From positions 1,216,001-1,280,000 of the forward strand of contig OZ241877.1 in assembly GCA_965203095.1 (NCBI GenBank): 64,000 bases of DNA, in the 5' to 3' direction. Source of the DNA: Bdellovibrionales bacterium. GTDB taxonomy: Bacteria > Bdellovibrionota > Bdellovibrionia > Bdellovibrionales > UBA1609. A program made the translations under genes and the position numbers. This document shows, piece after piece, positions 4,842 through 50,897 of the stretch (positions are counted from its first letter, which is position 1; each line of letters opens with the position of its first letter). A model generated the notes under the pieces. It saw only the letters and a list, made by a program, of their open reading frames with translations. It did not search any database and was not told the origin of the DNA.

Positions 4842-5786
4842 TTAGGTTTCTGTTTTTTCTCCCAGCAGATCTTCCATCATGTCATTGAAGTCGTCGGTAG
4901 GGCATTCTTGTGTTTTTTCTTTATTTGCTGGCAGAAGGGCCAACAGTTCAGGCAGAGGGTTAAAGCAAGTAGCCAAATCCCCAGGCATCAAACCGTCTTT
5001 GTTTTTAGAGTGAATGTCAGCTCCTTTGTCCACTAAAACTTTCACTATTTCTATATCATTGAACCATGCGGCTAAGTGTAAGGGGGTATCGCCGTCTTTA
5101 TCTGTAGCCGAAATGTTGGCTCCAGCAGATAAAAGAATTTTCACAAAATCGGAGTTAGAGTTAAAAAATGTGGCTAAATGTAGAGGGGTCATGCCATTAT
5201 CATCTTTGATCTCAATATTGGCTCCGGCAGATAAAAGAATTTTCATAAAATCAGGATCAGGGTTCATCCTGGTGGCTAAATGCAAAGGGGTTCGTCCGTC
5301 ATCATTTTTGACATTAACTTTTGCTTTAAAAGATAGCAGGGTCCCTCCAATTTTTAAAGAAAATTTGATGACAGCCAAATGTAATGCGGTATCGCCATCT
5401 TCATCTTTAACCGAAATGTCGGCTCCTGAGTCCAACAGGGTGAGAATTACATCAAAAATTTCATTACGTAAAATAGCTATGTGCAGGGGAGTATTGCCAT
5501 TTTCATCTTTGGCCTCAATATCAGCCCCTTCTGCTATAAGTGCTGAAATCACTTTGGGGTCGGGGTTTGCTGTGGCGGCTAAATGCAAAGGGGTTTGTCC
5601 GTCATTATTTTTGGCCTTCACATCAGCTCCTTCATTTAATAAATATTTTATGAGTTGCAGTTCGCCAAAATCAGCCATTAAATGTAAAGGGGTATTGCCA
5701 TTTTCATCTCTAAAGTTGATATCTGTATTGGATCCTGCTGAGAGATGACAAAAAAATAAGAATATAAAACCGGATAAAAACTGCAT
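4842..5786 (-). CDS. Secreted ankyrin-repeat protein (~7 repeats)
   Basis: Repeated G.TPLHLA..L..GA. Signal-like N-terminus from MQFLSGFIFLFF (ATG 5786). Confidence 0.93.
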   Translation of the reverse strand: MQFLSGFIFLFFCHLSAGSNTDINFRDENGNTPLHLMADFGELQLIKYLLNEGADVKAKNNDGQTPLHLAATANPDPKVISALIAEGADIEAKDENGNTPLHIAILRNEIFDVILTLLDSGADISVKDEDGDTALHLAVIKFSLKIGGTLLSFKAKVNVKNDDGRTPLHLATRMNPDPDFMKILLSAGANIEIKDDNGMTPLHLATFFNSNSDFVKILLSAGANISATDKDGDTPLHLAAWFNDIEIVKVLVDKGADIHSKNKDGLMPGDLATCFNPLPELLALLPANKEKTQECPTDDFNDMMEDLLGEKTET

Positions 5787-5872
5787 AATAACTCTATAAT
5801 ACAAAAAAGCGGATATTGCAAATTTAAATTGGAAAAGTGAAAAAATTTCCGATTTAAAGCAAGACTCCCTTA

Positions 5873-6538
5873 TCAACAGGCCAGGGGATGATGAAGAGGG
5901 ATATTCGTCATTTCTGAAATTTTTTGGCTATAATAGCTTGTTTTTTTAGGAAAAGACAGGTTTTTAACAATGCTGAGAGATCGCAAAAAAGCAAACAGAT
6001 GAAAATCATCTAAGCTCAGGTCCCCATTAAAAAAATCCTGGGAGCTATCAAAAAAAGACTCCAAAATCTGTAGTTCTTTACTCATTTCCTGAATAAGTTC
6101 AGGACTTTTGCTGAGGCAGTCTTTAAAAGGCCCGATATAAGCCTCTTTCTTTTTTTGAAAGTAATTTCTTGCCTGAAGGCTTTTAAATTCTTCTAAAGGG
6201 GCTTGGACCCATCGTGGCATGGCTAGCTCATAGCAAAGTGTGCTGTTTTTGTTCATCCATTTTGAAAGCTTGTTGTTTGTTTTTTCAGAAAGCAAAGGAT
6301 GGCCATCTTCTTGATCTATATGGGATATTATATCTAAACTCTCTGGCATAAATTGGCCATCTTCCAGCTGTAATATAGGAACCATTTTGACCCCTATCAT
6401 GGATTGAGGGGTTTTTTCATCATCGTTAGGGAGGCATACCAACTCCAACCCCACTTTTTTAAAGCCAAAAATCATACGGGCCTTCACACAGTAAGGGCAA
6501 TGATCATAAATATAAAGCTTTTTTGTGGTTTGAGCCAT
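5873..6538 (-). CDS. grxB: Glutaredoxin 2
   Basis: KLYIYDHCPYCVKARMIFG, MVPIL..DG..MPESLDII. Confidence 0.95.
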   Translation of the reverse strand: MAQTTKKLYIYDHCPYCVKARMIFGFKKVGLELVCLPNDDEKTPQSMIGVKMVPILQLEDGQFMPESLDIISHIDQEDGHPLLSEKTNNKLSKWMNKNSTLCYELAMPRWVQAPLEEFKSLQARNYFQKKKEAYIGPFKDCLSKSPELIQEMSKELQILESFFDSSQDFFNGDLSLDDFHLFAFLRSLSIVKNLSFPKKTSYYSQKISEMTNIPLHHPLAC

Positions 6539-6623: not shown

Positions 6624-6902
6624 GTCCCTCGTGAAAAAGCTCGTCGCTTCCGCCAATCTTGCTAAAAAGCTCCCCAAGCTTTTTAACTCTCGTGAAAACG
6701 GGAATCCAGAAAAGCCTGTTCTCGTAAAAACAGGGGTTTTCCTACAAAAGCTTGTTATACTGATTACATTTGAGATTTCCGGTCAAAACAGAGTAGAAAA
6801 GGCAGGAATTTTCAAACAAAATCAGTATAAAAAGGCAAATATTTTTTAGTTTCTTTGCCCAAAGGCCACAGCATTTCGGGACGGCAATACCTTGGACCCT
6901 CA
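6624..6902. repeat. Degenerate member of the MITE/palindrome repeat family
   Basis: GTCCCTCGTGAAAAAG end motif, CGGGAATCCAG and CCTGTTCTCGTAAAAACAGG. 6872-6902 is the reverse complement of 40806-40836. Confidence 0.7.
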
Positions 6903-7025: not shown

Positions 7026-9689
7026 ATGAAGAAAAATATATTAAAAAATACCTTGAGAGAGTCTGTTAAAATGGGAATCCAGAAAACTTTATCTTCTTTA
7101 CCTACAAAACCAACGGGAATCTTGCCCCCAGGGATCTCCGAGTCGCAGTTTCAAGGCAATTTCACCCCCCCCCCCCCCCCCGAAAAACGCTGTAAATTCA
7201 ATAGTTTAAAGCATTTTAAACACAAAAAAGCTTTTCTTTTAAATAATAAAGGCTTTTCTATTACCGGTGTGGTGGTGGCCTCCACGATTGGGGTAATAGC
7301 CATGACGGGTATGGCTAAACACATGGCCTTGATAGCCCAACAGCAACAGAAAATAAATAAGGAAAGGGAACTGAATGCTTTTTGGGAACAGTTTGGGACT
7401 GAAACTAATTGTAAGGAAACAATAAAAGGCTGGCTCAATCAGAATACCCCTCCCGCAAATTCTAAAAAAGAAAAGTTAGCTTTGGGGACTGAAGGCAATG
7501 AGATAGAAATCAAAGTTTTAAAAAAGAAAAAAAACAATGTTGTCAGCAATTTTTTTGATGTAAGCACTGCAAATAATGTTTTTAGGCGACATGGTTTTAC
7601 TCCCCGCTTTTTTGTTTTGAGATGTAATCCTGCTGACAATGGCGGGAGTTGTGATTGCAAGGCCAGCGGGACGACTTATCCCTGCAAAAAGACTTGGATG
7701 CTTATCCCTGGGGTTCAAAGGGGGATGACTTTTATTAGAGGAAGGGTTTTGAATTTAGATATTGAGTGGTCGTCTGCTCCTAATAGCACTTATACTAATT
7801 TTGATTGCACTAAGATAGGAATATCCGGCGGGAAAAACCGCTGTTATAAGGCGGAGGCTACTGGGAGCAAAAGAACCCTTGCTGGTTGTGGTAGCACACA
7901 ATCACTTGGTGGCACAGGCACAACCGCTTTTGGTAATGATGTAGCAAGGTCGGCTACTATCACTGGGGCTGAAAATTATTTTTTTGGACACTGGGCGGGG
8001 CATAGTGCCAAAGTAAGCTCCACTGGCAATTCTTTTTTTGGGGATAGAGCGGGCTTAGGAGTAGAGATAAAAGCCAGAGGGACAAACAATGGGAATGCCA
8101 ATGTTTTTGTGGGGCAGAGAGCGGGGGACAATGCCACAATAGATGGTGGCACACAAAACCATTTTTTTGGATTTCAATCGGGATATGATGCCACAGTGAG
8201 AGGGCATAGAAATCACTTTTTAGGTCCTTATTCTGGGTATAAAGTAAATATGACGTCGGGGAATAATAATACTTTTGTCGGCTCTAATGCTGGTAGAGAA
8301 ACCACAATCTCAGCCGGTGGTAATCATTTTTTTGGGGACAATGCTGGGAAAAAAGCCACAGTGAGCGGAGGGCAGAACCATTTTATTGGCGATCATGCCG
8401 GCCAATCCGCCACAGTGGCCGGGGCGAGAAATACCTTCTTAGGGAACAGTGCGGGCTGGAATGCGGATGTAAGAAGCGGGGCCGATGGCAATGTCTTTAT
8501 TGGGCAGAGTGCGGGAAAAAAAGATCATGGGACTACCACAGGCGGTTATATATCAGGGGATTTGAATGTCTTTTTAGGGCATGCCGCCGGCCGGACTGCT
8601 AAGGTGTCCGGGCATTATAATACCTTCATTGGAGCCGGTGCCGGGGACGGGCAACCTATCTCTGGCAATGGCGGGACTTATATCAAAGGGAGTAAAATAG
8701 AAATCAAAGCCAATGATGTTGTAATCAAATCGGGGGCGGGCGGTGTTAAGTGTGCTTGGAATGAATATCTTAGAGGATTTGATGGCAATGGAAAACTTTG
8801 CGGAGTGCGGGCCACTATAGGAACTTGTCCCAGTGGGCAAGTGCTTAGTGGATTTAATGCCGATGGAACTTTAAATTGTGTGGCCACTGGAGGCACAGGC
8901 TGGAAACAAACTTGTCCGGTGGGGGATGTTCTCAGAGGGTTTAACTCTGCCGGGAATAAAGTCTGTGCCCTTCAAGATAAATGCAATGCAGGTTATTATT
9001 GGAGTGGGAGTCGCTGTATAACCCGCTGTGGTAGCAGTCAGCGATGGAATCATGAAAGGGCGACATGTGTTGCTTATACCCCTCCCCCCTCCCCCCAGCA
9101 GGGGTGTAGTCCCGGCTGTTCCGCGGATTCTATTTGTAGGAGCGGAACTTGTGTCCCCCTCTCCCCCGGAGGACATGGTTCCTCCAAAGTTTATAAAAAG
9201 AATATTCGTCCTTTTAATGATATGGAAAAGGCTTTGAAGGATATTTTAGAGACTCCCCTATTCACTTATTATTTTAAGGATAAAAACAATTTTCCTAAAA
9301 AGAAAAGAATGGGAGTGATAGCGGAGGACTTGCCAAAAAACTTACAGCTTAAAGGAAAGCCTATTGCTCCGGACTGGCCCTCTATCTATGGGACATTGTG
9401 GGCCGGGATAAAAGCCCTTCATTCCAAGATAGAAAGTTTTAAAAAAGATGTGCTCTCAAAATTCAAAACTCTCAATTCCACAATAGAGGCAAAATTTAAA
9501 GCCCTCAGCAAAACAGACGATCAGTTTAAAAAAGAGCTGGCAGGAACAAATAAAGAGTTGGCCAATACTAAACAGGAACTAAAATCAGCCAATGAAAAAA
9601 TAGACAGCCTCTCAAAAGAATTAAAAGAACTAAAGTCCAGCTTTGAGAAAAAAGGACTAAACAAAATAGACAATCAGCCGATAAGATAA
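7026..9689 (+). CDS. Prepilin-like N-terminus / beta-roll + Cys-rich fibre / peptidase S74 chaperone (tail-fibre-like adhesin)
   Basis: KG|FSITGVVVASTIGVIAM at aa 75-93; many N-x-F-x-G-x-x-AG repeats; three C..G.VL.GF..G..C-type repeats; SSKVYKKNI..GVIAEDL..IKAL S74 domain followed by a coiled coil. Confidence 0.85.
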   Translation: MKKNILKNTLRESVKMGIQKTLSSLPTKPTGILPPGISESQFQGNFTPPPPPEKRCKFNSLKHFKHKKAFLLNNKGFSITGVVVASTIGVIAMTGMAKHMALIAQQQQKINKERELNAFWEQFGTETNCKETIKGWLNQNTPPANSKKEKLALGTEGNEIEIKVLKKKKNNVVSNFFDVSTANNVFRRHGFTPRFFVLRCNPADNGGSCDCKASGTTYPCKKTWMLIPGVQRGMTFIRGRVLNLDIEWSSAPNSTYTNFDCTKIGISGGKNRCYKAEATGSKRTLAGCGSTQSLGGTGTTAFGNDVARSATITGAENYFFGHWAGHSAKVSSTGNSFFGDRAGLGVEIKARGTNNGNANVFVGQRAGDNATIDGGTQNHFFGFQSGYDATVRGHRNHFLGPYSGYKVNMTSGNNNTFVGSNAGRETTISAGGNHFFGDNAGKKATVSGGQNHFIGDHAGQSATVAGARNTFLGNSAGWNADVRSGADGNVFIGQSAGKKDHGTTTGGYISGDLNVFLGHAAGRTAKVSGHYNTFIGAGAGDGQPISGNGGTYIKGSKIEIKANDVVIKSGAGGVKCAWNEYLRGFDGNGKLCGVRATIGTCPSGQVLSGFNADGTLNCVATGGTGWKQTCPVGDVLRGFNSAGNKVCALQDKCNAGYYWSGSRCITRCGSSQRWNHERATCVAYTPPPSPQQGCSPGCSADSICRSGTCVPLSPGGHGSSKVYKKNIRPFNDMEKALKDILETPLFTYYFKDKNNFPKKKRMGVIAEDLPKNLQLKGKPIAPDWPSIYGTLWAGIKALHSKIESFKKDVLSKFKTLNSTIEAKFKALSKTDDQFKKELAGTNKELANTKQELKSANEKIDSLSKELKELKSSFEKKGLNKIDNQPIR
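7165..7181 (+). repeat. C17 homopolymer within the fibre gene leader
   Basis: 17 consecutive C, read as T-PPPPP. Confidence 0.85.
9658..9684 (+). promoter_or_regulatory. Sigma28 promoter for the pentapeptide gene (duplicated at 14941-14967)
   Basis: Exact TAAA-N15-GCCGATAA, followed by SD GGAGG and ATG 9715. Confidence 0.7.
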
Positions 9690-9714
9690 ACAGGAAACCT
9701 AAAACGGAGGGACT

Positions 9715-10269
9715 ATGAAACAAATTATTTTAATCCTTTTATGGATTGCAATCCCAGCTCAGAGCATTGCAATCCCCTTTGATAAAAAAAATTTAAAATA
9801 TAAAAAATCTTTAAAAAAAAGTGATCTCCACTATAAGAAATTAAGAGGTTCACTTCATGATAAGAAACAAACAAAAAAACCAGTTGATCCAACAAAACAA
9901 GCAGAGCTTATTAAGCAAATAAGGAAAGGCAAAAAAGATTTGGCGGGAGCAGACTTGAGAGGGGCAAACTTAGTGAGAACGAACTTACAGAATACAACCT
10001 TGAATTGGGCGGACTTTGAGGGGGCGATCTTAATAAGGGCGAACTTGAGAAGAGCATACATGGAACATGCAAACTTGAGAGGGGCAAAACTGCATGGGGC
10101 GGACTTTGAGGGGGCGATCTTGACAGGGGCGGACTTTAAGGGGGCGATCTTGACAGGGGCAAAATTTAAAGGAACAAACCTAATTTTTGCTTATATAGAC
10201 TCAAAATATCGTGACATGATTATGGCCAGCGGAGCATTGAACACAGACAGGATTAACTGGTGGGATTAA
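9715..10269 (+). CDS. Secreted pentapeptide-repeat protein
   Basis: Signal peptide; A(D/N)LxG repeats. Confidence 0.92.
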   Translation: MKQIILILLWIAIPAQSIAIPFDKKNLKYKKSLKKSDLHYKKLRGSLHDKKQTKKPVDPTKQAELIKQIRKGKKDLAGADLRGANLVRTNLQNTTLNWADFEGAILIRANLRRAYMEHANLRGAKLHGADFEGAILTGADFKGAILTGAKFKGTNLIFAYIDSKYRDMIMASGALNTDRINWWD

Positions 10270-10350
10270 GCTCCGCCCTTTGTGTGAAAAATTTACAAAA
10301 GGCTTTAAAAGACTTTGTTTTCCCGGACAATCCTGCTATAAACAAACTCT

Positions 10351-10608
10351 ATGAAAATACTATTGAGCCTTATTCTTTTAATGAGCTTGCCGGCTTTTTC
10401 TGAAAACACGGAGCCAGTTGATCACACAAAACAAGCAGAATTGATTAACCAAATCAGACAAGGAAAAAAAAACTTGACAGGGGCGGACTTGAGAGGGGCT
10501 ACTTGGATAGGAGCGAACTTAGCTGGAACTTATATAAACTCAAAATATCGTGACATGATTATGGCCAGCGGAGCATTGAACACAGACAAGATTAAATGGG
10601 TGGATTAA
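10351..10608 (+). CDS. Short secreted pentapeptide-repeat protein, paralogue of 9715
   Basis: Signal peptide MKILLSLILLMSLPAFS, few repeats, C-terminus nearly identical to the 9715 protein. Confidence 0.85.
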   Translation: MKILLSLILLMSLPAFSENTEPVDHTKQAELINQIRQGKKNLTGADLRGATWIGANLAGTYINSKYRDMIMASGALNTDKIKWVD

Positions 10609-10676
10609 GCTTTTGCCCTTTGTGTGAAAAATTTACAAAATTCTATTTTTTTGGAGGATTATTATATAAGGCAAAT

Positions 10677-10838
10677 ATGAAAAATTTATTATTTATCTTT
10701 TCCTTTTATTCTTTTACCGCTGGAGCAGGTTTTTGGGACTCTTTGAATTTTTGGTCCGGTCCTGATTGGTATGCAGTGATTACAAACTTACATTTTGGAC
10801 AACCTTTTAAAATATATGCTGATAATGTAGGGAATTGA
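10677..10838 (+). CDS. Small signal-peptide ORF, possibly a remnant
   Basis: MKNLLFIFSFYSFTAGA, downstream of the same 26-bp upstream motif as 10351. Confidence 0.35.
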   Translation: MKNLLFIFSFYSFTAGAGFWDSLNFWSGPDWYAVITNLHFGQPFKIYADNVGN

Positions 10839-11032
10839 CTTTCATTATACTTGTGGTATAATAAACTCGCTATTTTACTGATAAAATTAGTCTAAAATCT
10901 GAGCTTTTAGGCAAAGAGAATAAATTCTGTCAGCAAAATACTGAAACATGGACAACCCCTTCCTTTTTTCCTATATTGAGTAGACAGTGAGTGTGCAGGC
11001 TTTTATAAAATATAGGGGTAGTAAAAAACCGG

Positions 11033-11585
11033 ATGAATGCCAAAAAAACAGTTTTAATAGTCGCAGGGCCTTCTGGGGGACATATTTACCCCGCTTTGGC
11101 TGTGGCGGAAAAGTTGAAAGATCAATTTCAAGTTCATTTGGCCCATTCCGGTTCTCTTTTAGGAAGAAGTCTTTTAAATTCTACAAAATTCCCCATCCAT
11201 GAAATTTCCATTGGTGGTTTAGCCCAAGGGCAGAGTTTTTTTAAAAAAATAAAAACAGTTTTTAACCTGCCACTGGCTTTTATTCATTCCCTAAGACTTA
11301 TCCAAAAAATAAAAACTGGTCTTGTTTTTGGAACTGGAGGATCTGTCACCGGTCCCCTTTTATTAACTGCTGTTTTAATGTTTCGTAAAACTGCTTTATG
11401 GGAAGGGAATATTTCTGCAGGATTGGCCAACCGCTGGCTAGCTCCCTTTGTCTCAAAAGTGTTTACAGTTTTTCCTGAAGTGGAGGCTTTGCCTTTAAAA
11501 AAACAACAACTCTGTGGTTATCCTTTAAGGGATCCAAAACCGGGTTTTCAAAAAAAACCACCAACTGAGGGGCAAAAGGATTTTT
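11033..11585 (+). pseudogene. murG: 3'-truncated murG copy cut by IS1634
   Basis: Identical to 16316-16868, then reads into the IS terminal repeat (stop at 11689). Confidence 0.93.
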
Positions 11586-13518
11586 CCCGACTTCCGCATT
11601 TTGTGATCAGGAATCCAGTATTATCAAGGGTTTGCGGGGAGGCTTGGGTCACTACATTCAAGACTTTAGTTTGTGATATTAGGACATAAATTTAATAGTT
11701 CGTGGGAAGGTTTTGTTAAAGGCTTTGTAGATATTCTTTTGTGTTTTGTTGATTGTAGAAGGTAGGAAGAATTTCTTTCCTGTGGATGTGTCCTCTATAT
11801 AACTGATTTGGACAAGACTTAATTCTTGTTTAATGACTTCAAAACTAAGGTTTATATTTTTAGATTTCAAAACATGCCTCACAAAAACCGTCAGACCATA
11901 AGCTATAAAACATATTAACACATGAGCCTTTATCCTTCTCGGTGTCCAATGATAGATAGGTCTCATCTTCAAATCATGTTTGTTCATACGAAAAGCAGAT
12001 TCTATTTGCCAAAGATTTTTGTATTTTTCCAATATGTTATGGGCCGTCTCTTTTTTGTTGTTTACAGCTACAGCACTAAATCCGTCCCATAAACGCTCCG
12101 CTTGTATCTTGTCTTCATTTAAAACAGCCCAACCCTTCTGTTTTAACTCCAAATACTTCTTAAGTCCGGTGTTTTTAACCAAATCCTTCACACGAACTCG
12201 ACCACCTTTCATCTTTTCTTTTATCTTGGCCAAAAGCTTCTCCCTATCCCTTCTGTCTTTATCTGCTCTTTCCCGATCATAACGGACAATGAGACGAAAA
12301 CCCTCCCACTCATATTCCCCCGTCCAGCTCCGAACCTTTCTAAAATCCCCTCTTTTAGAAAAAGCAGGAGCTTCCGACAACACCCTATCCTTCAAAGACT
12401 TCTTCATTGACTTCAGCCGGGCCCCAGCTATAAACTGAACCTTCCTTTTATCCATCTCAAAAAGATTTTTCTTGGAAAACATCCCACGATCAGCAACTAA
12501 AAACACATCCCGAATATCATAACTCTTTGATATATTATCTATCGTCTGGAGCAAAGTATTGCCCTCAAAAGTATTACCAGAAAAAAGCTCATAACCTATA
12601 GGCAAACCCCCTTTAGTCGTCATCAAAGACAAAACAACCTGTGTCTCTTTGATCTTATTGTCCTTGCTAAAACCACAACTCCTCAAATTATCCTCGATAA
12701 AACTCTCAAAATACAATGTCGTCACATCAAAAAACACAACATCAATACGCTCTTTAAACAAACTCAATGTCCTCTCGGTTAGCTTGCCTTTTAAAACCTC
12801 ACTATTCTTATAAACCTTGTCCATCATCCGATAAACACGATCCAAAGGTATGGACTGAACACCAGCAGACCTTCTGCTTATGTCCAAAACACTACCCCGC
12901 TTACTCATCGGACTTTTTAAACGATGCAAAACCATTTCCTTCAATAGTTGGCTGGCCTCTCTATGCTTATATCCCTCATTAAAACAAGACGATAAACCCA
13001 GGTCATCGTAAACCTTGCCAAATATGTCTGAAATCCCCACAACTTGACGACTCTCCTCTTTCAGACTTGGTGCATGAACCATATCCCCAGGATAAAAATC
13101 CCTCTTCTTCTCTCTCGTAGAGTCCCCCTTGGAATCCCTCTTAGAATCCTCCTCAAAAAGCGAGAACTGATCTTTTCCTTTGAGGTCCTGAATGACTTTT
13201 CTGCCGATCTTGTAAAATAAAGCAATTTTCTCTTTATCGTTTTGATGGCAATGTCCTACACAGCCAATAGTCTCTTGTCTGACTTTTTTGCCTTCTCTAC
13301 GGCTTCTGACCACACGGATGGAAACATGGCCATTGGCTTTTTTAACTTCACGAATAAACATACTGGCAGAATAAGAGAAGACAGAAGGCTTGTCAAGTAG
13401 ATAAATTAAAAATATTGCTTTATTTTTATCAAGGGCCACTACACCCCAACACAACAATAAAAAGCCCATAAACTGGGCCTTTTAAACCCTTACAACTCTA
13501 CAAAATGCGGAAGTCGGG
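11586..13518 (-). mobile_element. IS1634-family insertion sequence
   Basis: Perfect 19-bp TIR CCCGACTTCCGCATTTTGT (11586-11604 / 13500-13518). No flanking target-site duplication. Confidence 0.95.
11679..13361 (-). CDS. IS1634-family DDE transposase
   Basis: MFIREVKK start; FFDVTTLYFE, GFSKD, VADRG, YKNLWQIESAFR..K..L..RPIYH. Confidence 0.95.
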   Translation of the reverse strand: MFIREVKKANGHVSIRVVRSRREGKKVRQETIGCVGHCHQNDKEKIALFYKIGRKVIQDLKGKDQFSLFEEDSKRDSKGDSTREKKRDFYPGDMVHAPSLKEESRQVVGISDIFGKVYDDLGLSSCFNEGYKHREASQLLKEMVLHRLKSPMSKRGSVLDISRRSAGVQSIPLDRVYRMMDKVYKNSEVLKGKLTERTLSLFKERIDVVFFDVTTLYFESFIEDNLRSCGFSKDNKIKETQVVLSLMTTKGGLPIGYELFSGNTFEGNTLLQTIDNISKSYDIRDVFLVADRGMFSKKNLFEMDKRKVQFIAGARLKSMKKSLKDRVLSEAPAFSKRGDFRKVRSWTGEYEWEGFRLIVRYDRERADKDRRDREKLLAKIKEKMKGGRVRVKDLVKNTGLKKYLELKQKGWAVLNEDKIQAERLWDGFSAVAVNNKKETAHNILEKYKNLWQIESAFRMNKHDLKMRPIYHWTPRRIKAHVLICFIAYGLTVFVRHVLKSKNINLSFEVIKQELSLVQISYIEDTSTGKKFFLPSTINKTQKNIYKAFNKTFPRTIKFMS

Positions 13519-14972
13519 AGTAAATATGACGTCGGGGAATAATAATACTTTTGTCGGCTCTAATGCTGGTAGAGAAACCACAATCTCAGCCGGTGGTAAT
13601 CATTTTTTTGGGGACAATGCTGGGAAAAAAGCCACAGTGAGCGGAGGGCAGAACCATTTTATTGGCGATCATGCCGGCCAATCCGCCACAGTGGCCGGGG
13701 CGAGAAATACCTTCTTAGGGAACAGTGCGGGCTGGAATGCGGATGTAAGAAGCGGGGCCGATGGCAATGTCTTTATTGGGCAGAGTGCGGGAAAAAAAGA
13801 TCATGGGACTACCACAGGCGGTTATATATCAGGGGATTTGAATGTCTTTTTAGGGCATGCCGCCGGCCGGACTGCTAAGGTGTCCGGGCATTATAATACC
13901 TTCATTGGAGCCGGTGCCGGGGACGGGCAACCTATCTCTGGCAATGGCGGGACTTATATCAAAGGGAGTAAAATAGAAATCAAAGCCAATGATGTTGTAA
14001 TCAAATCGGGGGCGGGCGGTGTTAAGTGTGCTTGGAATGAATATCTTAGAGGATTTGATGGCAATGGAAAACTTTGCGGAGTGCGGGCCACTATAGGAAC
14101 TTGTCCCAGTGGGCAAGTGCTTAGTGGATTTAATGCCGATGGAACTTTAAATTGTGTGGCCACTGGAGGCACAGGCTGGAAACAAACTTGTCCGGTGGGG
14201 GATGTTCTCAGAGGGTTTAACTCTGCCGGGAATAAAGTCTGTGCCCTTCAAGATAAATGCAATGCAGGTTATTATTGGAGTGGGAGTCGCTGTATAACCC
14301 GCTGTGGTAGCAGTCAGCGATGGAATCATGAAAGGGCGACATGTGTTGCTTATACCCCTCCCCCCTCCCCCCTCCCCCCAGCAGGGGTGTAGTCCCGGCT
14401 GTTCCGCGGATTCTATTTGTAGGAGCGGAACTTGTGTCCCCCTCTCCCCCGGAGGACATGGTTCCTCCAAAGTTTATAAAAAGAATATTCGTCCTTTTAA
14501 TGATATGGAAAAGGCTTTGAAGGATATTTTAGAGACTCCCCTATTCACTTATTATTTTAAGGATAAAAACAATTTTCCTAAAAAGAAAAGAATGGGAGTG
14601 ATAGCGGAGGACTTGCCAAAAAACTTACAGCTTAAAGGAAAGCCTATTGCTCCGGACTGGCCCTCTATCTATGGGACATTGTGGGCCGGGATAAAAGCCC
14701 TTCATTCCAAGATAGAAAGTTTTAAAAAAGATGTGCTCTCAAAATTCAAAACTCTCAATTCCACAATAGAGGCAAAATTTAAAGCCCTCAGCAAAACAGA
14801 CGATCAGTTTAAAAAAGAGCTGGCAGGAACAAATAAAGAGTTGGCCAATACTAAACAGGAACTAAAATCAGCCAATGAAAAAATAGACAGCCTCTCAAAA
14901 GAATTAAAAGAACTAAAGTCCAGCTTTGAGAAAAAAGGACTAAACAAAATAGACAATCAGCCGATAAGATAA
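13505..14972 (+). pseudogene. 5'-truncated, frameshifted second copy of the fibre gene
   Basis: In-frame ATG lies inside the IS TIR. An extra TCCCCCC unit at 14359-14379 splits it into the 13505-14392 ORF and an S74 part ending at 14972. Confidence 0.88.
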
Positions 14973-14997
14973 ACAGGAAACCTAAAACGGAGGGACT

Positions 14998-15552
14998 ATG
15001 AAACAAATTATTTTAATCCTTTTATGGATTGCAATCCCAGCTCAGAGCATTGCAATCCCCTTTGATAAAAAAAATTTAAAATATAAAAAATCTTTAAAAA
15101 AAAGTGATCTCCACTATAAGAAATTAAGAGGTTCACTTCATGATAAGAAACAAACAAAAAAACCAGTTGATCCAACAAAACAAGCAGAGCTTATTAAGCA
15201 AATAAGGAAAGGCAAAAAAGATTTGGCGGGAGCAGACTTGAGAGGGGCAAACTTAGTGAGAACGAACTTACAGAATACAACCTTGAATTGGGCGGACTTT
15301 GAGGGGGCGATCTTAATAAGGGCGAACTTGAGAAGAGCATACATGGAACATGCAAACTTGAGAGGGGCAAAACTGCATGGGGCGGACTTTGAGGGGGCGA
15401 TCTTGACAGGGGCGGACTTTAAGGGGGCGATCTTGACAGGGGCAAAATTTAAAGGAACAAACCTAATTTTTGCTTATATAGACTCAAAATATCGTGACAT
15501 GATTATGGCCAGCGGAGCATTGAACACAGACAGGATTAACTGGTGGGATTAA
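14998..15552 (+). CDS. Pentapeptide-repeat protein (duplicate of 9715)
   Basis: Identical translation. Confidence 0.92.
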   Translation: MKQIILILLWIAIPAQSIAIPFDKKNLKYKKSLKKSDLHYKKLRGSLHDKKQTKKPVDPTKQAELIKQIRKGKKDLAGADLRGANLVRTNLQNTTLNWADFEGAILIRANLRRAYMEHANLRGAKLHGADFEGAILTGADFKGAILTGAKFKGTNLIFAYIDSKYRDMIMASGALNTDRINWWD

Positions 15553-15633
15553 GCTCCGCCCTTTGTGTGAAAAATTTACAAAAGGCTTTAAAAGACTTTG
15601 TTTTCCCGGACAATCCTGCTATAAACAAACTCT

Positions 15634-15891
15634 ATGAAAATACTATTGAGCCTTATTCTTTTAATGAGCTTGCCGGCTTTTTCTGAAAACACGGAGCCAG
15701 TTGATCACACAAAACAAGCAGAATTGATTAACCAAATCAGACAAGGAAAAAAAAACTTGACAGGGGCGGACTTGAGAGGGGCTACTTGGATAGGAGCGAA
15801 CTTAGCTGGAACTTATATAAACTCAAAATATCGTGACATGATTATGGCCAGCGGAGCATTGAACACAGACAAGATTAAATGGGTGGATTAA
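15634..15891 (+). CDS. Short pentapeptide-repeat protein (duplicate of 10351)
   Basis: Identical translation. Confidence 0.85.
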   Translation: MKILLSLILLMSLPAFSENTEPVDHTKQAELINQIRQGKKNLTGADLRGATWIGANLAGTYINSKYRDMIMASGALNTDKIKWVD

Positions 15892-16315
15892 GCTTTTGCC
15901 CTTTGTGTGAAAAATTTACAAAATTCTATTTTTTTGGAGGATTATTATATAAGGCAAATATGAAAAATTTATTATTTATCTTTTCCTTTTATTCTTTTAC
16001 CGCTGGAGCAGGTTTTTGGGACTCTTTGAATTTTTGGTCCGGTCCTGATTGGTATGCAGTGATTACAAACTTACATTTTGGACAACCTTTTAAAATATAT
16101 GCTGATAATGTAGGGAATTGACTTTCATTATACTTGTGGTATAATAAACTCGCTATTTTACTGATAAAATTAGTCTAAAATCTGAGCTTTTAGGCAAAGA
16201 GAATAAATTCTGTCAGCAAAATACTGAAACATGGACAACCCCTTCCTTTTTTCCTATATTGAGTAGACAGTGAGTGTGCAGGCTTTTATAAAATATAGGG
16301 GTAGTAAAAAACCGG

Positions 16316-17401
16316 ATGAATGCCAAAAAAACAGTTTTAATAGTCGCAGGGCCTTCTGGGGGACATATTTACCCCGCTTTGGCTGTGGCGGAAAAGTTGA
16401 AAGATCAATTTCAAGTTCATTTGGCCCATTCCGGTTCTCTTTTAGGAAGAAGTCTTTTAAATTCTACAAAATTCCCCATCCATGAAATTTCCATTGGTGG
16501 TTTAGCCCAAGGGCAGAGTTTTTTTAAAAAAATAAAAACAGTTTTTAACCTGCCACTGGCTTTTATTCATTCCCTAAGACTTATCCAAAAAATAAAAACT
16601 GGTCTTGTTTTTGGAACTGGAGGATCTGTCACCGGTCCCCTTTTATTAACTGCTGTTTTAATGTTTCGTAAAACTGCTTTATGGGAAGGGAATATTTCTG
16701 CAGGATTGGCCAACCGCTGGCTAGCTCCCTTTGTCTCAAAAGTGTTTACAGTTTTTCCTGAAGTGGAGGCTTTGCCTTTAAAAAAACAACAACTCTGTGG
16801 TTATCCTTTAAGGGATCCAAAACCGGGTTTTCAAAAAAAACCACCAACTGAGGGGCAAAAGGATTTTTTTAAGCTTTTGATCTTGGGGGGGAGCCAAGGT
16901 TCTCAGTTCATCAATCAGGTTGTCAGCCAAGCTGTGGAGGAGGAGAGCTGGAGAGAGGGTATTTTTATCTATCATCAAACAGGCAAAATGTCTTTCCCTA
17001 AAATCAACAAGAAATACAAGAGTTTGAATAGGGTTCAGGCTTTTCCCTTCAGCTCAAATATAGATAAGTATTACAAAAACAGCGATCTGATTATTTCTCG
17101 TGCCGGCTCAGGTGCTATTTGGGAGGTGGCGGAACAAGGCAAAGCCCTTGTCCTCATCCCTTTAACTGCCTCTGCCGGAGGGCATCAGCTCAAAAATGCC
17201 CTTTGGCTCTCTTCAAGAAATTGTGTTGAAATGATCAAAGAGCCGGATTTTAATGTCAAGAGCTTGAAGGATATAGTCATTCAGCTGAAACAAAATGAGA
17301 AGAGAAGAAAGCAGTTGGCTCAATTTTTAAAAACCAGGAGCCAAGGAGACGGTGCTCAGTATATTGCTAATCAGTTGGCCGGACTGGCCTCTACTGCTTG
17401 A
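16316..17401 (+). CDS. murG: Lipid II GlcNAc transferase
   Basis: AGPSGGHIYPALA, GGSQGS, ISRAGSG, HQLKNA; upstream of murC. Confidence 0.95.
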   Translation: MNAKKTVLIVAGPSGGHIYPALAVAEKLKDQFQVHLAHSGSLLGRSLLNSTKFPIHEISIGGLAQGQSFFKKIKTVFNLPLAFIHSLRLIQKIKTGLVFGTGGSVTGPLLLTAVLMFRKTALWEGNISAGLANRWLAPFVSKVFTVFPEVEALPLKKQQLCGYPLRDPKPGFQKKPPTEGQKDFFKLLILGGSQGSQFINQVVSQAVEEESWREGIFIYHQTGKMSFPKINKKYKSLNRVQAFPFSSNIDKYYKNSDLIISRAGSGAIWEVAEQGKALVLIPLTASAGGHQLKNALWLSSRNCVEMIKEPDFNVKSLKDIVIQLKQNEKRRKQLAQFLKTRSQGDGAQYIANQLAGLASTA

Positions 17402-27448: not shown

Positions 27449-28303
27449 TTATAAAAAAGAAGATAGACAAGGCTTGTTAGCATTGTTCAGCAGTTTAACC
27501 ACTTGGCTTTTAAATGTGGGCTGGATACCCTTTCGAGGAGTTCGACTCATCCACTCCTGCATAGCGGGATCTTTTTTATCAAGAGGAATGTCCGGCCTTC
27601 GAGAAAGATAATACTCTGGAATTTTGCCAAATTTGTTTTTTGCTTGAGGCTTTGCTCCCGCCTCTAATAGAATTTTAATGACTTGAATATTAGGATTGCT
27701 GGCTACGGCCAAATGCAAAGGGCTGTTGCCGTTTATATTTTTAGCATGAATATTTGCTCCTGCTTTTAAAAGGGCCAGTGTGACTTCTGGGTTAGGGTTA
27801 TCCTGAGCAGAATAGTGAATAGGGGTGCTTTTATGGTGGTTTAAAACATTCACATTCGCTCCAGCAGAAGTAAGAGCAGTGATCATTTTTGGATTGAGGT
27901 TATTTTGAGCTGACAAGTGCAAAGGGCTTAGCCAATGGCGGTCTTTAATATCAACATAATGATCAGCCCCTGCTTTTAAAAGAGCCAGTGTCACATCTGG
28001 GTTATTGTATCGAGCAGACAAATGCAATGGGCTTTGCCATTGGCTATTTGTAGCATAAACATCCGCACCAGCAGATAAAAGAGCAATGCTCACTTCCGGA
28101 TGAGGATTATATTGGGCCGAAACTCGCAATAGATAATTTATCGAAAAGTTATTTTTTAACGCTCCTTGTTCTATCAATTCCTGCACTTCTTTAGCAGAAC
28201 CTGTTTGCACTGTTAAAAAACCATTTTCTAAGGTTTTATCACCCCAAGACAAAGAGGCTATAAGAAGAAGGTTAACTATAATCTTCAACATTCCCATCCA
28301 CAA
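27449..28303 (-). CDS. Secreted ankyrin-repeat protein
   Basis: SPLHLSA..NP repeats and a signal peptide. Confidence 0.92.
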   Translation of the reverse strand: MWMGMLKIIVNLLLIASLSWGDKTLENGFLTVQTGSAKEVQELIEQGALKNNFSINYLLRVSAQYNPHPEVSIALLSAGADVYATNSQWQSPLHLSARYNNPDVTLALLKAGADHYVDIKDRHWLSPLHLSAQNNLNPKMITALTSAGANVNVLNHHKSTPIHYSAQDNPNPEVTLALLKAGANIHAKNINGNSPLHLAVASNPNIQVIKILLEAGAKPQAKNKFGKIPEYYLSRRPDIPLDKKDPAMQEWMSRTPRKGIQPTFKSQVVKLLNNANKPCLSSFL

Positions 28304-28312
28304 CTCAACAAA

Positions 28313-29491
28313 TCAGGATGAAGTAAAAATTCTTCGGCAGTGGGATATTACTCTTTGTGGAAAAGACTTTCTACTTTTTATTTCTTTTAAAACAGGAGGA
28401 ACTAAACCGGGAAGTTCAGGAATAGTGAGGGAATCATCTTTAAGAGCTTTTAAAACTTGAGGGTTCATTTCTTCCATAGCATAATTTATTGGAGTGCGAC
28501 CTTGAGTATCTTCAACATGTTTATCTGCTCCAGCGGATAATAAGGGAGGGATAGCTAAGGCATTATTATTTAAAATCGCGTGGTGTAAAGGGGTTCTTGA
28601 TTCATAATCCATAGCATTCAGCTTTGCCCCTGCATTCAAAAGGGCAGTGATAACCTCAAGGGGTTTAGGGTTATTCCCGGTGGCTAAGTGCAAGGCGGTT
28701 CGGCCAGCTTTATCTCGACTATGAATATTCACACCGGCTTTTATGAGAATCTGAATAATGTTGGGCAGTAAATTCTCTTCAGCAGAAATATGCAGGAGGC
28801 TTAGCTTTTCTCTATCCACAAAATTGACATTTGACCCTCCCTGGATAAGAGTTTTAACAATTGAGGCAGAAGGGTTTTGGATAATAGCCAAATATATAGG
28901 GATCCGCCCCTCATGGTCCTGAGCTTGAACATCCGCCCCTCCTTTTATAAGTGCTTGAATCACTTTCGGGAAGGGATTGCTACTGGCGGCATAATGTAGG
29001 GCAGTGTAGCCCTTTTTATCCTGAGCTTGAACATCCACCCCCCCGGCGATAAGTGTTTGAATCACTTCCGAAAAGGGATTGCTTTTAGCGGCTAAGTGTA
29101 AAGCAGTTCGGCCCTCATGGTCTTGAGCTTTGACATCCACTCCTGCGTTGATAAGTGCTTGAATCACTCCTGGGAAAGGATTGCCTTTAGCGGCTAAGTG
29201 TAAAGGGTTTTGCCCCTTATCATCTACAATATCAACCTTTGCTCCTTTATTTAACAAAGCCTTAACATGTTGTGGGGCGATAGGCCCTTTTATAGGTGAG
29301 GTATTTTTTGCCCGAAACAAATCAGGTTTAGCCTTCTTAAGCTCATCATGTTGAAGGTGGGATGTAATTTCAGTATTTAAAAAAACTGTCAACAGTGCCT
29401 CTTCAGTTTGTTTCTGAGTGGCTTGAACATTTTCCCCTCCCATTGTGTTGAGAGAGAAAACCAACAAAACTACAGCTATATATTTATTCAT
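28313..29491 (-). CDS. Secreted ankyrin-repeat protein (~8 repeats)
   Basis: G.TALHLAA..NPF repeats with 102-bp DNA periodicity; signal peptide; SD GGAG. Confidence 0.93.
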   Translation of the reverse strand: MNKYIAVVLLVFSLNTMGGENVQATQKQTEEALLTVFLNTEITSHLQHDELKKAKPDLFRAKNTSPIKGPIAPQHVKALLNKGAKVDIVDDKGQNPLHLAAKGNPFPGVIQALINAGVDVKAQDHEGRTALHLAAKSNPFSEVIQTLIAGGVDVQAQDKKGYTALHYAASSNPFPKVIQALIKGGADVQAQDHEGRIPIYLAIIQNPSASIVKTLIQGGSNVNFVDREKLSLLHISAEENLLPNIIQILIKAGVNIHSRDKAGRTALHLATGNNPKPLEVITALLNAGAKLNAMDYESRTPLHHAILNNNALAIPPLLSAGADKHVEDTQGRTPINYAMEEMNPQVLKALKDDSLTIPELPGLVPPVLKEIKSRKSFPQRVISHCRRIFTSS

Positions 29492-40944: not shown

Positions 40945-41751
40945 TTACAATTTTTGCTTCACAGCTTCTTGTGATTCTTCCTCCACAGCGTCGTCTTGCG
41001 ATTCCTCCTCACATTTTTCATCTATAATAGCTCCATCCCAGATTGCATGCTCTGAGTCTGTTTCCCGCAAGTCGGCCCTACACAAGTTCGCATTTTGAAA
41101 GTTTGCATATTCCAAGTCAGCTCCAAACAAAATTGCATTTTGCAATTTTGCTGATTCCAAGATTGCTGAATACAAATCAGCCTCCCACAAGTTCGCATTT
41201 TGCAAGTTCGCTTTAGTTAAGTCCGCTCCATCTAAGTCCGCAGACTGCAATTTTGCCCTCTGCAATTTTGCAAGCCTCAAGTTTGCCCCTGTCAAGTCCG
41301 CAGACTGTAATTTTGCCAATATCAAGCTCGCCTCCTGTAAGTCGGCATACTCCAAGTCCGTTCCTCTCAAGTCCGCCATATCCAATTTTGCTGATATTAA
41401 GCTCGCGAACTCCAATTCGGCATTCCGCAAGTCCGCCCCTGTCAAGTCAGCTGTATTCAAATTTGCATACTGTAATTTTGTTCCTCGCAAATCAGCATGT
41501 CGCAAGTCCGCTCCATCTAAGTTCGCTCCTCGCAAATCAGCATGTCGCAAGTCTGTATTCTGTAAGTCCTTTTTCCCTTGTTTAATTTGTTCAATCAACT
41601 CTTCTGGTTGGACGGTATCAACTGGGCTTAGCTCTGCTGGCTGGACGGGATCAACTGGCTGGACGGGATCAACTGGTTGGACGGGATCAGCTGGGATTGT
41701 TGAACCAAAAGCCGGCAAGCTTATTAAAAAAAGGCTCAATAATAATTTCAT
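40945..41751 (-). CDS. Secreted pentapeptide-repeat protein with PVDPVQ tandem repeats
   Basis: Signal peptide, 18-bp tandem repeats, ~35 pentapeptides, SD GGAGG. Confidence 0.93.
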   Translation of the reverse strand: MKLLLSLFLISLPAFGSTIPADPVQPVDPVQPVDPVQPAELSPVDTVQPEELIEQIKQGKKDLQNTDLRHADLRGANLDGADLRHADLRGTKLQYANLNTADLTGADLRNAELEFASLISAKLDMADLRGTDLEYADLQEASLILAKLQSADLTGANLRLAKLQRAKLQSADLDGADLTKANLQNANLWEADLYSAILESAKLQNAILFGADLEYANFQNANLCRADLRETDSEHAIWDGAIIDEKCEEESQDDAVEEESQEAVKQKL

Positions 41752-49762: not shown

Positions 49763-50897
49763 TACTGGTTTGATTTAAAAAATCAAGTTTTTTTGATAAA
49801 GGTTTAGTTTTTGGCATTATGAGTTTTCCAAATCTTTTGGATGTTCTATAATATGTTTCTATGAACTCATTTTTAACTGGCAAGCAAAAAGCAGAGCTTT
49901 TAACTTTTCTTCGTTTGGAAAGGAATCGTAGGCGAGCGGATCGTATCCGGGTTATTTTGTTGCTGGATAGTGGAGAGTCTGTCACCGATATTGCGAGATT
50001 TTTATTTTTTGATGAAGGAACTATCAGAAACTGCAAAAGGCGTTATGAAGAAGGAGGTTTGTCGAGGTTGGTTTATGACGATCATAGAGGTCGCATGTCG
50101 TATTTATCTGAGGAACAACGGAAGAAACTGGTTTTGGAGTTGGAGTCAAAGGTATATCCCACAACAAAGGCAGTTGTTTTATATGTTCAAAAGACATTTG
50201 GGGTTGTTTATACTGTGAATGGAATGACGGCTTTACTTCACAAGTTAGATTTTTCATATAAGAAGCCAAAGGGTGTGCCTGGGAAGGCTGATATTGAGAA
50301 GCAGAAGGTGTTTATTCAAAGATATCGCAGGATAAAAAAGAGAGGTGATTTAGTGTATTTTGCGGATTCAACTCATCCTATGCTCAATCCTGTAATATCA
50401 TCGGGTTGGATTAAGAAGGGGGTGGAGTTTAAGGTTAAAACTAATTCAGGTCGTGAGCGGGTGAATATAAATGGTGCGATAGAGATAAATAGTTTAGATT
50501 TTGTCAGTAGAAGCTGTGAGAGGGTTAATAAAAATTCAATGCAGGAGTTATTGCGAGCTGTGAGGGCGAGACAGCCTATGAGGGATAAAAGGTTGTATTT
50601 GGTTTTAGACAATGCACCATATAACAGGGCCTTTCAGGTGAGGGATTTAGCGAAAAGTTTGGATATTACTTTGCTGTATTTGCCTCCATTTTCTCCTAAT
50701 TTGAATCCTATTGAGAGGTTTTGGAAATTTGTAAAGAAGAAGACAATGGCTAATGTGTATTTTTCAGATCTTAAAACTTTTCGTAAAGAGTTGATGCTGT
50801 TTTTAAGAGGTGTTAGAAAATACAGGGCTGAATTGTCCATGCTTATTACTGATAATTTTCATGTCATCGAAACCTGAAAATTCAAACAAGACCAGTA
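49763..50897 (+). mobile_element. IS630-family insertion sequence
   Basis: TA|TACTGGT..ACCAGTA|TA ends with TA duplication (49761-2, 50898-9). Confidence 0.92.
49861..50877 (+). CDS. IS630-family transposase
   Basis: N-terminal HTH; YFAD, VLDNAPYN, LPPFSPNLNPIERFW. Confidence 0.95.
   Translation: MNSFLTGKQKAELLTFLRLERNRRRADRIRVILLLDSGESVTDIARFLFFDEGTIRNCKRRYEEGGLSRLVYDDHRGRMSYLSEEQRKKLVLELESKVYPTTKAVVLYVQKTFGVVYTVNGMTALLHKLDFSYKKPKGVPGKADIEKQKVFIQRYRRIKKRGDLVYFADSTHPMLNPVISSGWIKKGVEFKVKTNSGRERVNINGAIEINSLDFVSRSCERVNKNSMQELLRAVRARQPMRDKRLYLVLDNAPYNRAFQVRDLAKSLDITLLYLPPFSPNLNPIERFWKFVKKKTMANVYFSDLKTFRKELMLFLRGVRKYRAELSMLITDNFHVIET

Follow-up and report, generated by a model that had tools for sequence, protein, structure and literature searches.

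The stretch of Bdellovibrionales DNA considered here (the window: 64,000 nucleotides, positions 1,216,001 to 1,280,000 of contig OZ241877.1, assembly GCA_965203095.1) carries on its forward strand, at 7026..9689, an ATG-initiated coding sequence for an 887-residue protein that joins a pilin-like N-terminus to a repeat stalk, a variable tip and a C-terminal Peptidase S74 domain. The set of features for which this gene was originally singled out is present in full. In all probability this modular protein is a minor type IV pilin, and yields a self-trimming homotrimeric adhesive fibre at the tip of a type IVa pilus.

The protein begins with a basic leader of 76 residues (7026..7253; 15 Lys and Arg against 3 Asp and Glu), presumably cytoplasmic, the 5' part of which differs between paralogues and holds a degenerate copy of a dispersed palindrome. 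An in-frame tract of 17 cytosines (C17) within the leader, at 7165..7181, is a candidate phase-variation switch. Gly76, the last leader residue, precedes a class III-like cleavage site (G76, then F77-SITGVVVASTIGVIAM) in which the +5 residue (aa 81) is Gly in place of Glu, and the hydrophobic segment that starts there (alpha1N; 7254..7316) is the stretch of highest hydropathy in the entire protein. The pilin module (aa 77-260; 7254..7805) is modelled as an N-terminal helix of ~50 residues and a Cys-rich alpha/beta head. It is followed by a conserved neck (aa 261-305; 7806..7940), in which the first trimer-core contacts of the model described below are found. Cys residues of the head and neck region are at positions 129, 200, 209, 211, 220, 261, 273 and 288.

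The remainder of the protein is fibre-like. Twelve N-x-F-x-G-x-x-[AS]G repeats (aa 317-540; 7974..8645), predicted to form a trimeric beta-roll stalk, are spaced by 18-20 residues and twice by 24-25 (1000 shuffled sequences gave at most 1 copy of the search pattern N-x-[FY]-[FILV]-G-x-x-[ASV]-G, with a mean of 0.005). Three repeats of the form C-x-x-x-[EQD]-[YV]-L-x-G-F-x-x-x-G-x-x-x-C, starting at aa 576, 601 and 630 (aa 576-647; 8751..8966), lead to a hypervariable Cys-rich tip (aa 651-718; 8976..9179) encoded in part by a short C-rich 7-nt repeat at ~9079-9096. The S74 intramolecular chaperone and autoprotease (aa 719-771; 9180..9338) is recognized by PF13884 at 31.3 bits (cut-off 22), and coiled-coil-type matches over aa 793-878 (9402..9659) mark the chaperone's C-terminal coiled coil. 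Its predicted catalytic Ser-Lys dyad, S719 and K724, five residues apart, is unchanged across 18 aligned relatives. The basic leader with its class III-like site, the replacement of Glu5, the Cys-containing domain, both repeat arrays and the S74 domain with its coiled coil had all been claimed by the original prediction, and all were recovered, by count in the translation or by profile.

A probable pilin-type N-terminus

A search of 1.84 billion proteins with the N-terminal domain returned 27 non-self representatives; the class III pattern occurs in 24 of them, with Gly at +5 in 23, and three pass the cut-offs for both N_methyl and S74. Among 41 aligned heads, which are diverged, the Gly-Phe junction together with Gly at +5 is nearly invariant, and 31 match N_methyl at E<=0.05. 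Three relatives begin Gly-Ser, not Gly-Phe, and leaders of 76 residues (this copy) and 119 residues occur in the family. Elsewhere this head stands on its own or is joined to different C-terminal regions, a collagen stalk among them, as fits a carrier module. A plain Sec signal peptide was rejected, since the helix starts 76 residues in, behind the conserved Gly-Phe.

Outside this genome, the same genus has 8 S74 matches, every one with a class III site; the +5 residue is Gly in 5 and Ser in 3. For the sister genus, 41 open reading frames were compared (all 36 PF13884 matches, from 10 of 15 genomes, and 5 further S74-like frames): 38 have a class III site, 36 of these with Glu5, and the remaining 3 are fragments. 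Pfam scans of fibres from both genera put 6 of 47 over both cut-offs. Judged by sequence, every intact S74 gene checked in the two genera is pilin-headed. The predicted absence of Glu5 stands for the protein at 7026..9689 and does not generalize, its loss being a trait of this genus and not of the pilin-S74 design.

In a language-model comparison, aa 70-270 matched PilV-type minor-pilin clusters of Bdellovibrionota (score 0.94; 183-185 shared features). The alignment-based model of aa 77-302 (pLDDT 79.6, used in place of a single-sequence prediction of pLDDT 36) shows a beta head behind a helix that spans its residues 3-50. As for the stalk, it is a module of general occurrence and provides no evidence for a pilin: a profile search of 5.8 billion proteins returned 117, mostly repeat-array fibres, and by the pattern used the class III motif is found in 0 of the 114 new ones. 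Nothing relevant came from sequence searches of the PDB, whether the query was the S74 part, the repeat stalk or an alignment that takes in repeats and S74. Across the order, a model from this alignment matched in 173 of 251 genomes, a figure that is not a count of the fusion. Whole-protein matches in the ESM Atlas that combine N_methyl and S74, one of them also with YadA_head, are commonest in Candidatus Melainabacteria; with scores of 0.81-0.85 (<0.9) they are a lead only.

The pilin-like helix might instead be an inner-membrane anchor alone, cleaved or not, with the trimer remaining periplasmic or being released and no filament involved. Loss of Glu5 throughout the genus is compatible with an anchor, as are the long leaders, the three Gly-Ser junctions and the consideration that a preformed trimer would have to pass the secretin. 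This is made rather unlikely by the near invariance of Gly-Phe and Gly at +5 in diverged heads, by the retention of Glu5 in the sister genus and by the hypervariable tip, which argues for surface exposure. Moreover, tip complexes of type IV filaments are capped by a Glu5-less subunit, according to the accessible text of Pelicic 2023 (PMC10191384). The same source bears on the claim of the original prediction that the fibre is carried on a pilus instead of being Sec-exported. That wording is imprecise, because prepilins too cross the membrane by way of the signal recognition particle and Sec; the true contrast is between prepilin peptidase with pilus extrusion on the one hand and an ordinary cleaved signal peptide on the other.

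Trimer model and paralogues

Modelling of the protein by itself favours the predicted trimer: three copies of aa 77-405, a region that ends ahead of S74, score 0.79 (0.00 for the best of 3 controls). In the calibration of this score, made on dimers, the mark was reached by 20 of 30 pairs of solved structure and by 1 of 23 single chains. Contact agreement is at least 89% and pLDDT at least 72. The calibration on dimers tempers the result, and the stalk part of the trimer may pass through likeness to solved fibres. Over aa 272-401 the contacts come once in each repeat; more are made along aa 92-110, where the three pilin helices meet in a three-chain contact; they would thus form a bundle, the geometry needed by a pilus cap. 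One relative has a collagen stalk ahead of S74, which implies three chains.

Of the six S74 matches in the genome, five are full-length paralogues and one, within the window, is a truncated duplicate. Mean identity among the five paralogues is 92% in alpha1, 93% in the neck and 95% in S74 (pairwise 91-100%), and falls to 57% in the repeats and 11% in the tip; stalk length also varies. The five carry exchanged tips on a conserved base. Several genomes of the genus have a single S74 fibre copy. One sister genome (G256:C7:821000-887000) holds a tandem run of 14 S74 genes in ~65 kb; a class III site with Glu5 is present in 13, behind leaders that are built of short repeats and reach ~290 residues. 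Another has three tandem S74 pilin genes with overlapping frames.

These arrangements, and the near identity of the S74 domains, raise the question whether a pilus-borne fibre might be heterotrimeric, either by mixing of paralogue chains through S74 or by pairing of fibre chains with core tip pilins. Heterotrimers are nonetheless distinctly unlikely: stalks of differing length would break register between paralogues, several genomes of the genus are single-copy, and the homotrimer models well.

Leader poly-C tracts

All five paralogues have a poly-C tract in the leader. As assembled (assemblies may misstate the length of a homopolymer, so that the on/off assignment may change, a point that tells against the proposed switch), C17 in the gene at 7026..9689 and a C14 tract are in frame, C18 and C22 tracts are out of frame, and the fifth paralogue combines C18 with a T-run frameshift at the cleavage site, no upstream ATG being found for it. 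In the four intact paralogues there is no in-frame ATG, GTG or TTG between the tract and Phe77 or the equivalent Phe, so tract length decides translation. The tract in each leader is likely to be a phase-variation switch.

Runs of at least 11 C or G number 9 in the genome. Five lie in these leaders, and a sixth, a C18 tract, lies in a fibre-leader remnant upstream of an 821-aa TadG-like gene (C1:1412290-1414752). A C21 tract (C1:1606315-1606335) begins another gene at its 5' end, the product of which is probably exported and is unrelated to the fibres. Five relatives have 88 such runs, and 13 of the 30 examined are placed 9-63 codons ahead of the class III site of a pilin-like open reading frame (of 5000 positions drawn at random from this genome, 30 are so placed). 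An in-frame start precedes the tract in 5 of these 13, and a possible bypass start follows it in 8. Many other large modular pilins of relatives (G007, G008, G200 and G239), several with Cys-rich C-terminal parts, have C12-C31 leader tracts in mixed frames and are candidates for a wider contingency system. A metagenome scan for the tract flank gave 0 matches.

Filament machines of the host and the likely carrier

The host genome (order Bdellovibrionales, 1.80 Mb, 38% GC, 90% complete) encodes the prepilin peptidase PilD and a shorter TadV-like one, PilB, PilT, PilC and PilM, seven T2SSE-family ATPase matches, four secretins including one of PilQ type, and PilC/GspF platforms. Parts of a type II secretion system (T2SS), GspD, E, F, G, J and K, and Tad-type ATPases and secretins are also present. 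Flagellin was not found in this genome, at 90% completeness, nor was PilY1 (PF05567), either here or in 121 genomes of the order, a larger search in which, however, no control genome matched.

A cluster of five pilin genes at 1.613-1.619 Mb would, by its gene content, be a type IVa tip set. Three large minor pilins in a row within it (C1:1613059-1617167), of 320, 296 (Glu5-less) and 764 aa, the last with a weak vWA match, recall the PilABC tip of S. sanguinis. When a profile of sister-genus fibre heads is run on the host, the 296-aa and 764-aa cluster pilins come out on top (E 9e-7 and 6e-5), ahead of GspG (E 5e-3) and GspJ (E 0.03), scores to which the hydrophobic helix contributes. Some of the sister-genus S74 fibre genes have genes for PilA-like pilins as neighbours. 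Taken together, the genes point to a type IVa pilus as the most likely carrier of the fibre.

On the other hand, the same protein, processed in the same way, could be displayed or exported by another host machine, either a Tad pilus or the T2SS pseudopilus, to the tip of which it would be added as a further subunit. Both machines are encoded in this genome, with the TadV-like peptidase, and in B. bacteriovorus the Tad pilin is among the substrates of PilD, according to the accessible text of a preprint (bioRxiv 10.64898/2026.07.08.737194). A poly-C leader remnant upstream of a TadG-like gene and a structural match to GspK (Z 2.7) also favour such a carrier. It is rendered improbable by the profile ranking just described, in which the head is nearer to host non-T2SS minor pilins than to GspG and GspJ, by the match to PilV-type clusters and by the sister-genus fibre genes that adjoin pilA-like genes.

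Relation to known fibres and pilins

The combination of pilin and S74 is not categorically new. The N_methyl-Peptidase S74 pair (IPR012902-IPR030392) is among the 15 most frequent modular type IV pilin architectures of Raynaud et al. 2021 (PMC8179133); Dataset S1 of that paper has 29 proteins with both, and 4, 3 and 1 more with IPR008640 between, 37 in all. In its accessible text the S74 module is taken as 'peptidase activity' and no member is studied. The original prediction is thus anticipated in part: the architecture is catalogued, and the literature searched, a scope within which few subscription papers fell, holds no study of a pilin-S74 protein. It is listed since 2021, common and unstudied. 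The gene at 7026..9689 shares with that set the class III N-terminus and C-terminal S74; it differs by its long repeat stalk and variable tip ahead of S74, its leader poly-C tract and its lack of Glu5, on account of which the InterPro motif would miss it. Its S74 domain is best read as a trimerization chaperone rather than a displayed peptidase. What is added here is the lineage-wide occurrence of pilin-headed S74 genes, the five paralogues with swapped tips and the leader tracts. The accessible text of a 2026 review (PMC13689555) and of the Tad preprint cited above does not mention a pilin-fused fibre, and PMC13190605 and PMC12750041 have nothing on pilin-S74 fibres.

There is a functional likeness to the MAT (mosaic adhesive trimer) fibres of B. 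bacteriovorus. In the accessible text of Caulton et al. 2024 (PMC10769870), 21 MATs are described; S74 is present in 13, and each of the 21 has a signal peptide and a domain of 130 aa. The surface anchor is left open and a possible type IV pilus link is raised. (The word 'pilin' is absent from the main text and from two text-searchable supplements.) The S74 subgroup (Bd3182 and others) comes from the same bacterial order and shares multiple copies, a conserved base, a variable tip, C-terminal S74 and a predicted trimer, and the mosaic pattern by which MATs are recognized fits the identities given above. Membership of the MAT family was rejected, because the N-terminus is a pilin module and not a signal peptide with the conserved ~130-residue domain rich in beta structure. 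A MAT-like N-domain query (from a fibre of another family with a Sec-type start and S74, MAT-like by its weak match to 8ojn/8onb/8onc, E 0.003) had no match in this genome, in any of 9 genomes of its genus or in any of 8 from the sister genus, but matched in 35 of the 74 other genomes of the family. The two genera, related and not independent, therefore seem, by this one query, to have pilin-based fibres in the place that MATs take in their relatives.

CofB of the enterotoxigenic E. coli (ETEC) pilus CFA/III and TcpB of the V. cholerae toxin-coregulated pilus (TCP) resemble the fibre in having a pilin module with C-terminal trimerizing domains and a location at the tip (PMC8179133, PMC10191384, both in their accessible text). 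They differ in being of type IVb, without S74 and without a long stalk, and CofB is an adapter for a secreted adhesin. In how it works, the pilin-S74 fibre resembles MAT fibres and CofB, and it belongs to neither group. A C-terminal S74 chaperone is shared with phage tail fibres and tailspikes (the K1F endosialidase, the T5 L-shaped fibre), which the gene is unlike in being chromosomal and in having a pilin base. A prophage origin was rejected, phage genes being absent nearby. PHROG profiles gave a weak tail-fibre match (E 4e-4) for S74 and nothing for the stalk or tip. For the leader tracts, Neisseria pilC1/pilC2 provide the parallel of a 5' coding homopolymer that switches the frame of a pilus-associated adhesin (PMC5320596, in its accessible text). 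Here the tract is poly-C and not poly-G, the gene itself encodes a pilin, five loci are involved, and the switch is a candidate.

Proposed assembly

With the poly-C tract in frame, the prepilin would be translated and would enter the inner membrane, its basic leader staying inside. PilD would then cut between G76 and F77, as the motif, the relatives and the PilD of the host suggest. In the periplasm, the S74 domain and its coiled coil would bring three chains into register and the repeat stalk would zip into a trimer, as in the model. The S719/K724 dyad would, by MAT and phage precedent, free the chaperone and thereby expose the variable tip. The three pilin helices would bundle and either prime or cap the filament, in the manner of the CofB and TcpB trimers; PilB-driven assembly would push the fibre through PilQ, and the tip would bind the surface of prey or of an animal host. 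Five exchanged-tip paralogues, switched by their tracts, would be a variable repertoire in the role of the B. bacteriovorus MAT fibres.

If this is true, a catalogued and unexplained pilin architecture gains a mechanism, in which S74 is a trimerization chaperone and not a displayed protease, type IVa pili can carry a long homotrimeric cap, and a genetic link is provided between pili and MAT-type fibres, the two prey-contact systems of Bdellovibrio-like bacteria. A broader proposal is offered tentatively. Two genera of Bdellovibrionales with reduced genomes may have moved their whole S74 repertoire from a Sec-signal MAT base to one made of a type IV pilin. The type IVa pilus, in an order where PilY1 was not found, would then be primed and tipped by a trimer of phage type that is preformed and self-trimmed, and in this species five poly-C-switched loci would choose the cap, making prey or host recognition phase-variable.

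Several results weigh against a pilus-borne fibre assembled in this way. N_methyl, the profile by which a pilin N-terminus was to be recognized, fell short on this copy in a six-frame genome search (15.6 bits, cut-off 21.2; E 0.04) and did not match in a whole-protein Pfam scan, and NCBIfam gave PRK10557 alone, at 14-18 bits (cut-off 120). The fusion of pilin, fibre and S74 is supported by relatives that exceed both Pfam cut-offs, this copy's own N_methyl match being sub-threshold. In a VIA structure search with the head, the best match was the minor pilin PilA of S. sanguinis at Z 3.6 (rmsd 4.3, 108 residues aligned); MshA (Z 2.9), FimA (2.8) and GspK are interspersed with unrelated proteins of similar rank, and CofB and TcpB are not among the 50 matches listed. 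Foldseek with the head model found nothing in the PDB at E<=0.001. The family's own N-terminal profile matched no host core pilin at E<0.5, and pairwise profile probabilities between the fibre head and host pilins were 20%, 32% and 0.1%. None of the full paralogues in this genome is next to pilus genes. In the sister genus, S74 fibres mostly lack a long tract. The dyad is set in S-S-x-x-x-K and therefore lacks the Asp of the motif quoted for MATs, S-D-x-x-x-K.

Neighbouring genes and dispersed elements

Directly downstream of the fibre gene, on the same strand at 9715..10608, are two small pentapeptide-repeat genes with hydrophobic N-termini. Each full paralogue, and also one leader remnant, has at least one such gene behind it, which may be a partner, a cargo or a hitch-hiking repeat family.

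A direct duplication of 3.35 kb (8243-11585 = 13519-16868, 99.8% identical) flanks an insertion sequence at ~11586-13518, the DDE transposase of which is encoded on the reverse strand at 11679..13469; four full copies of this element are found in the genome. In the first copy of the duplication the fibre gene is intact and murG truncated; in the second it is the fibre gene that is truncated and murG that is intact. No contig from four sequencing runs (at most two samples, of one study) spans the duplication or resolves the poly-C tract lengths. The duplicate fibre gene (13519..14972, forward strand) is 5'-truncated, starting from aa ~407, and one extra copy of the C-rich 7-nt unit of the tip (14353-14377, compared with 9079-9096) shifts its frame ahead of S74. 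The longer form is seen in the contig of one run, and the repeat is a possible second slippage site.

A palindrome, ATTCCC-N8-GGGAAT, is dispersed in 54 copies over the main contig (for example at ~6690-6715 and 7068-7088) and forms part of the variable leaders. We take it to be reminiscent of the Neisseria dRS3 and Rickettsia palindromic elements.

Reduced, sponge-associated Bdellovibrionota are known (PMC9944714, in its accessible text), and the present genome is like them in size and in its ankyrin genes. Ankyrin-repeat genes, a further pentapeptide-repeat gene and a second transposase-like open reading frame are found in the window (4842-5876, 27449-29491, 40945-41751 and 49861-50877), and are typical of host-associated genomes.

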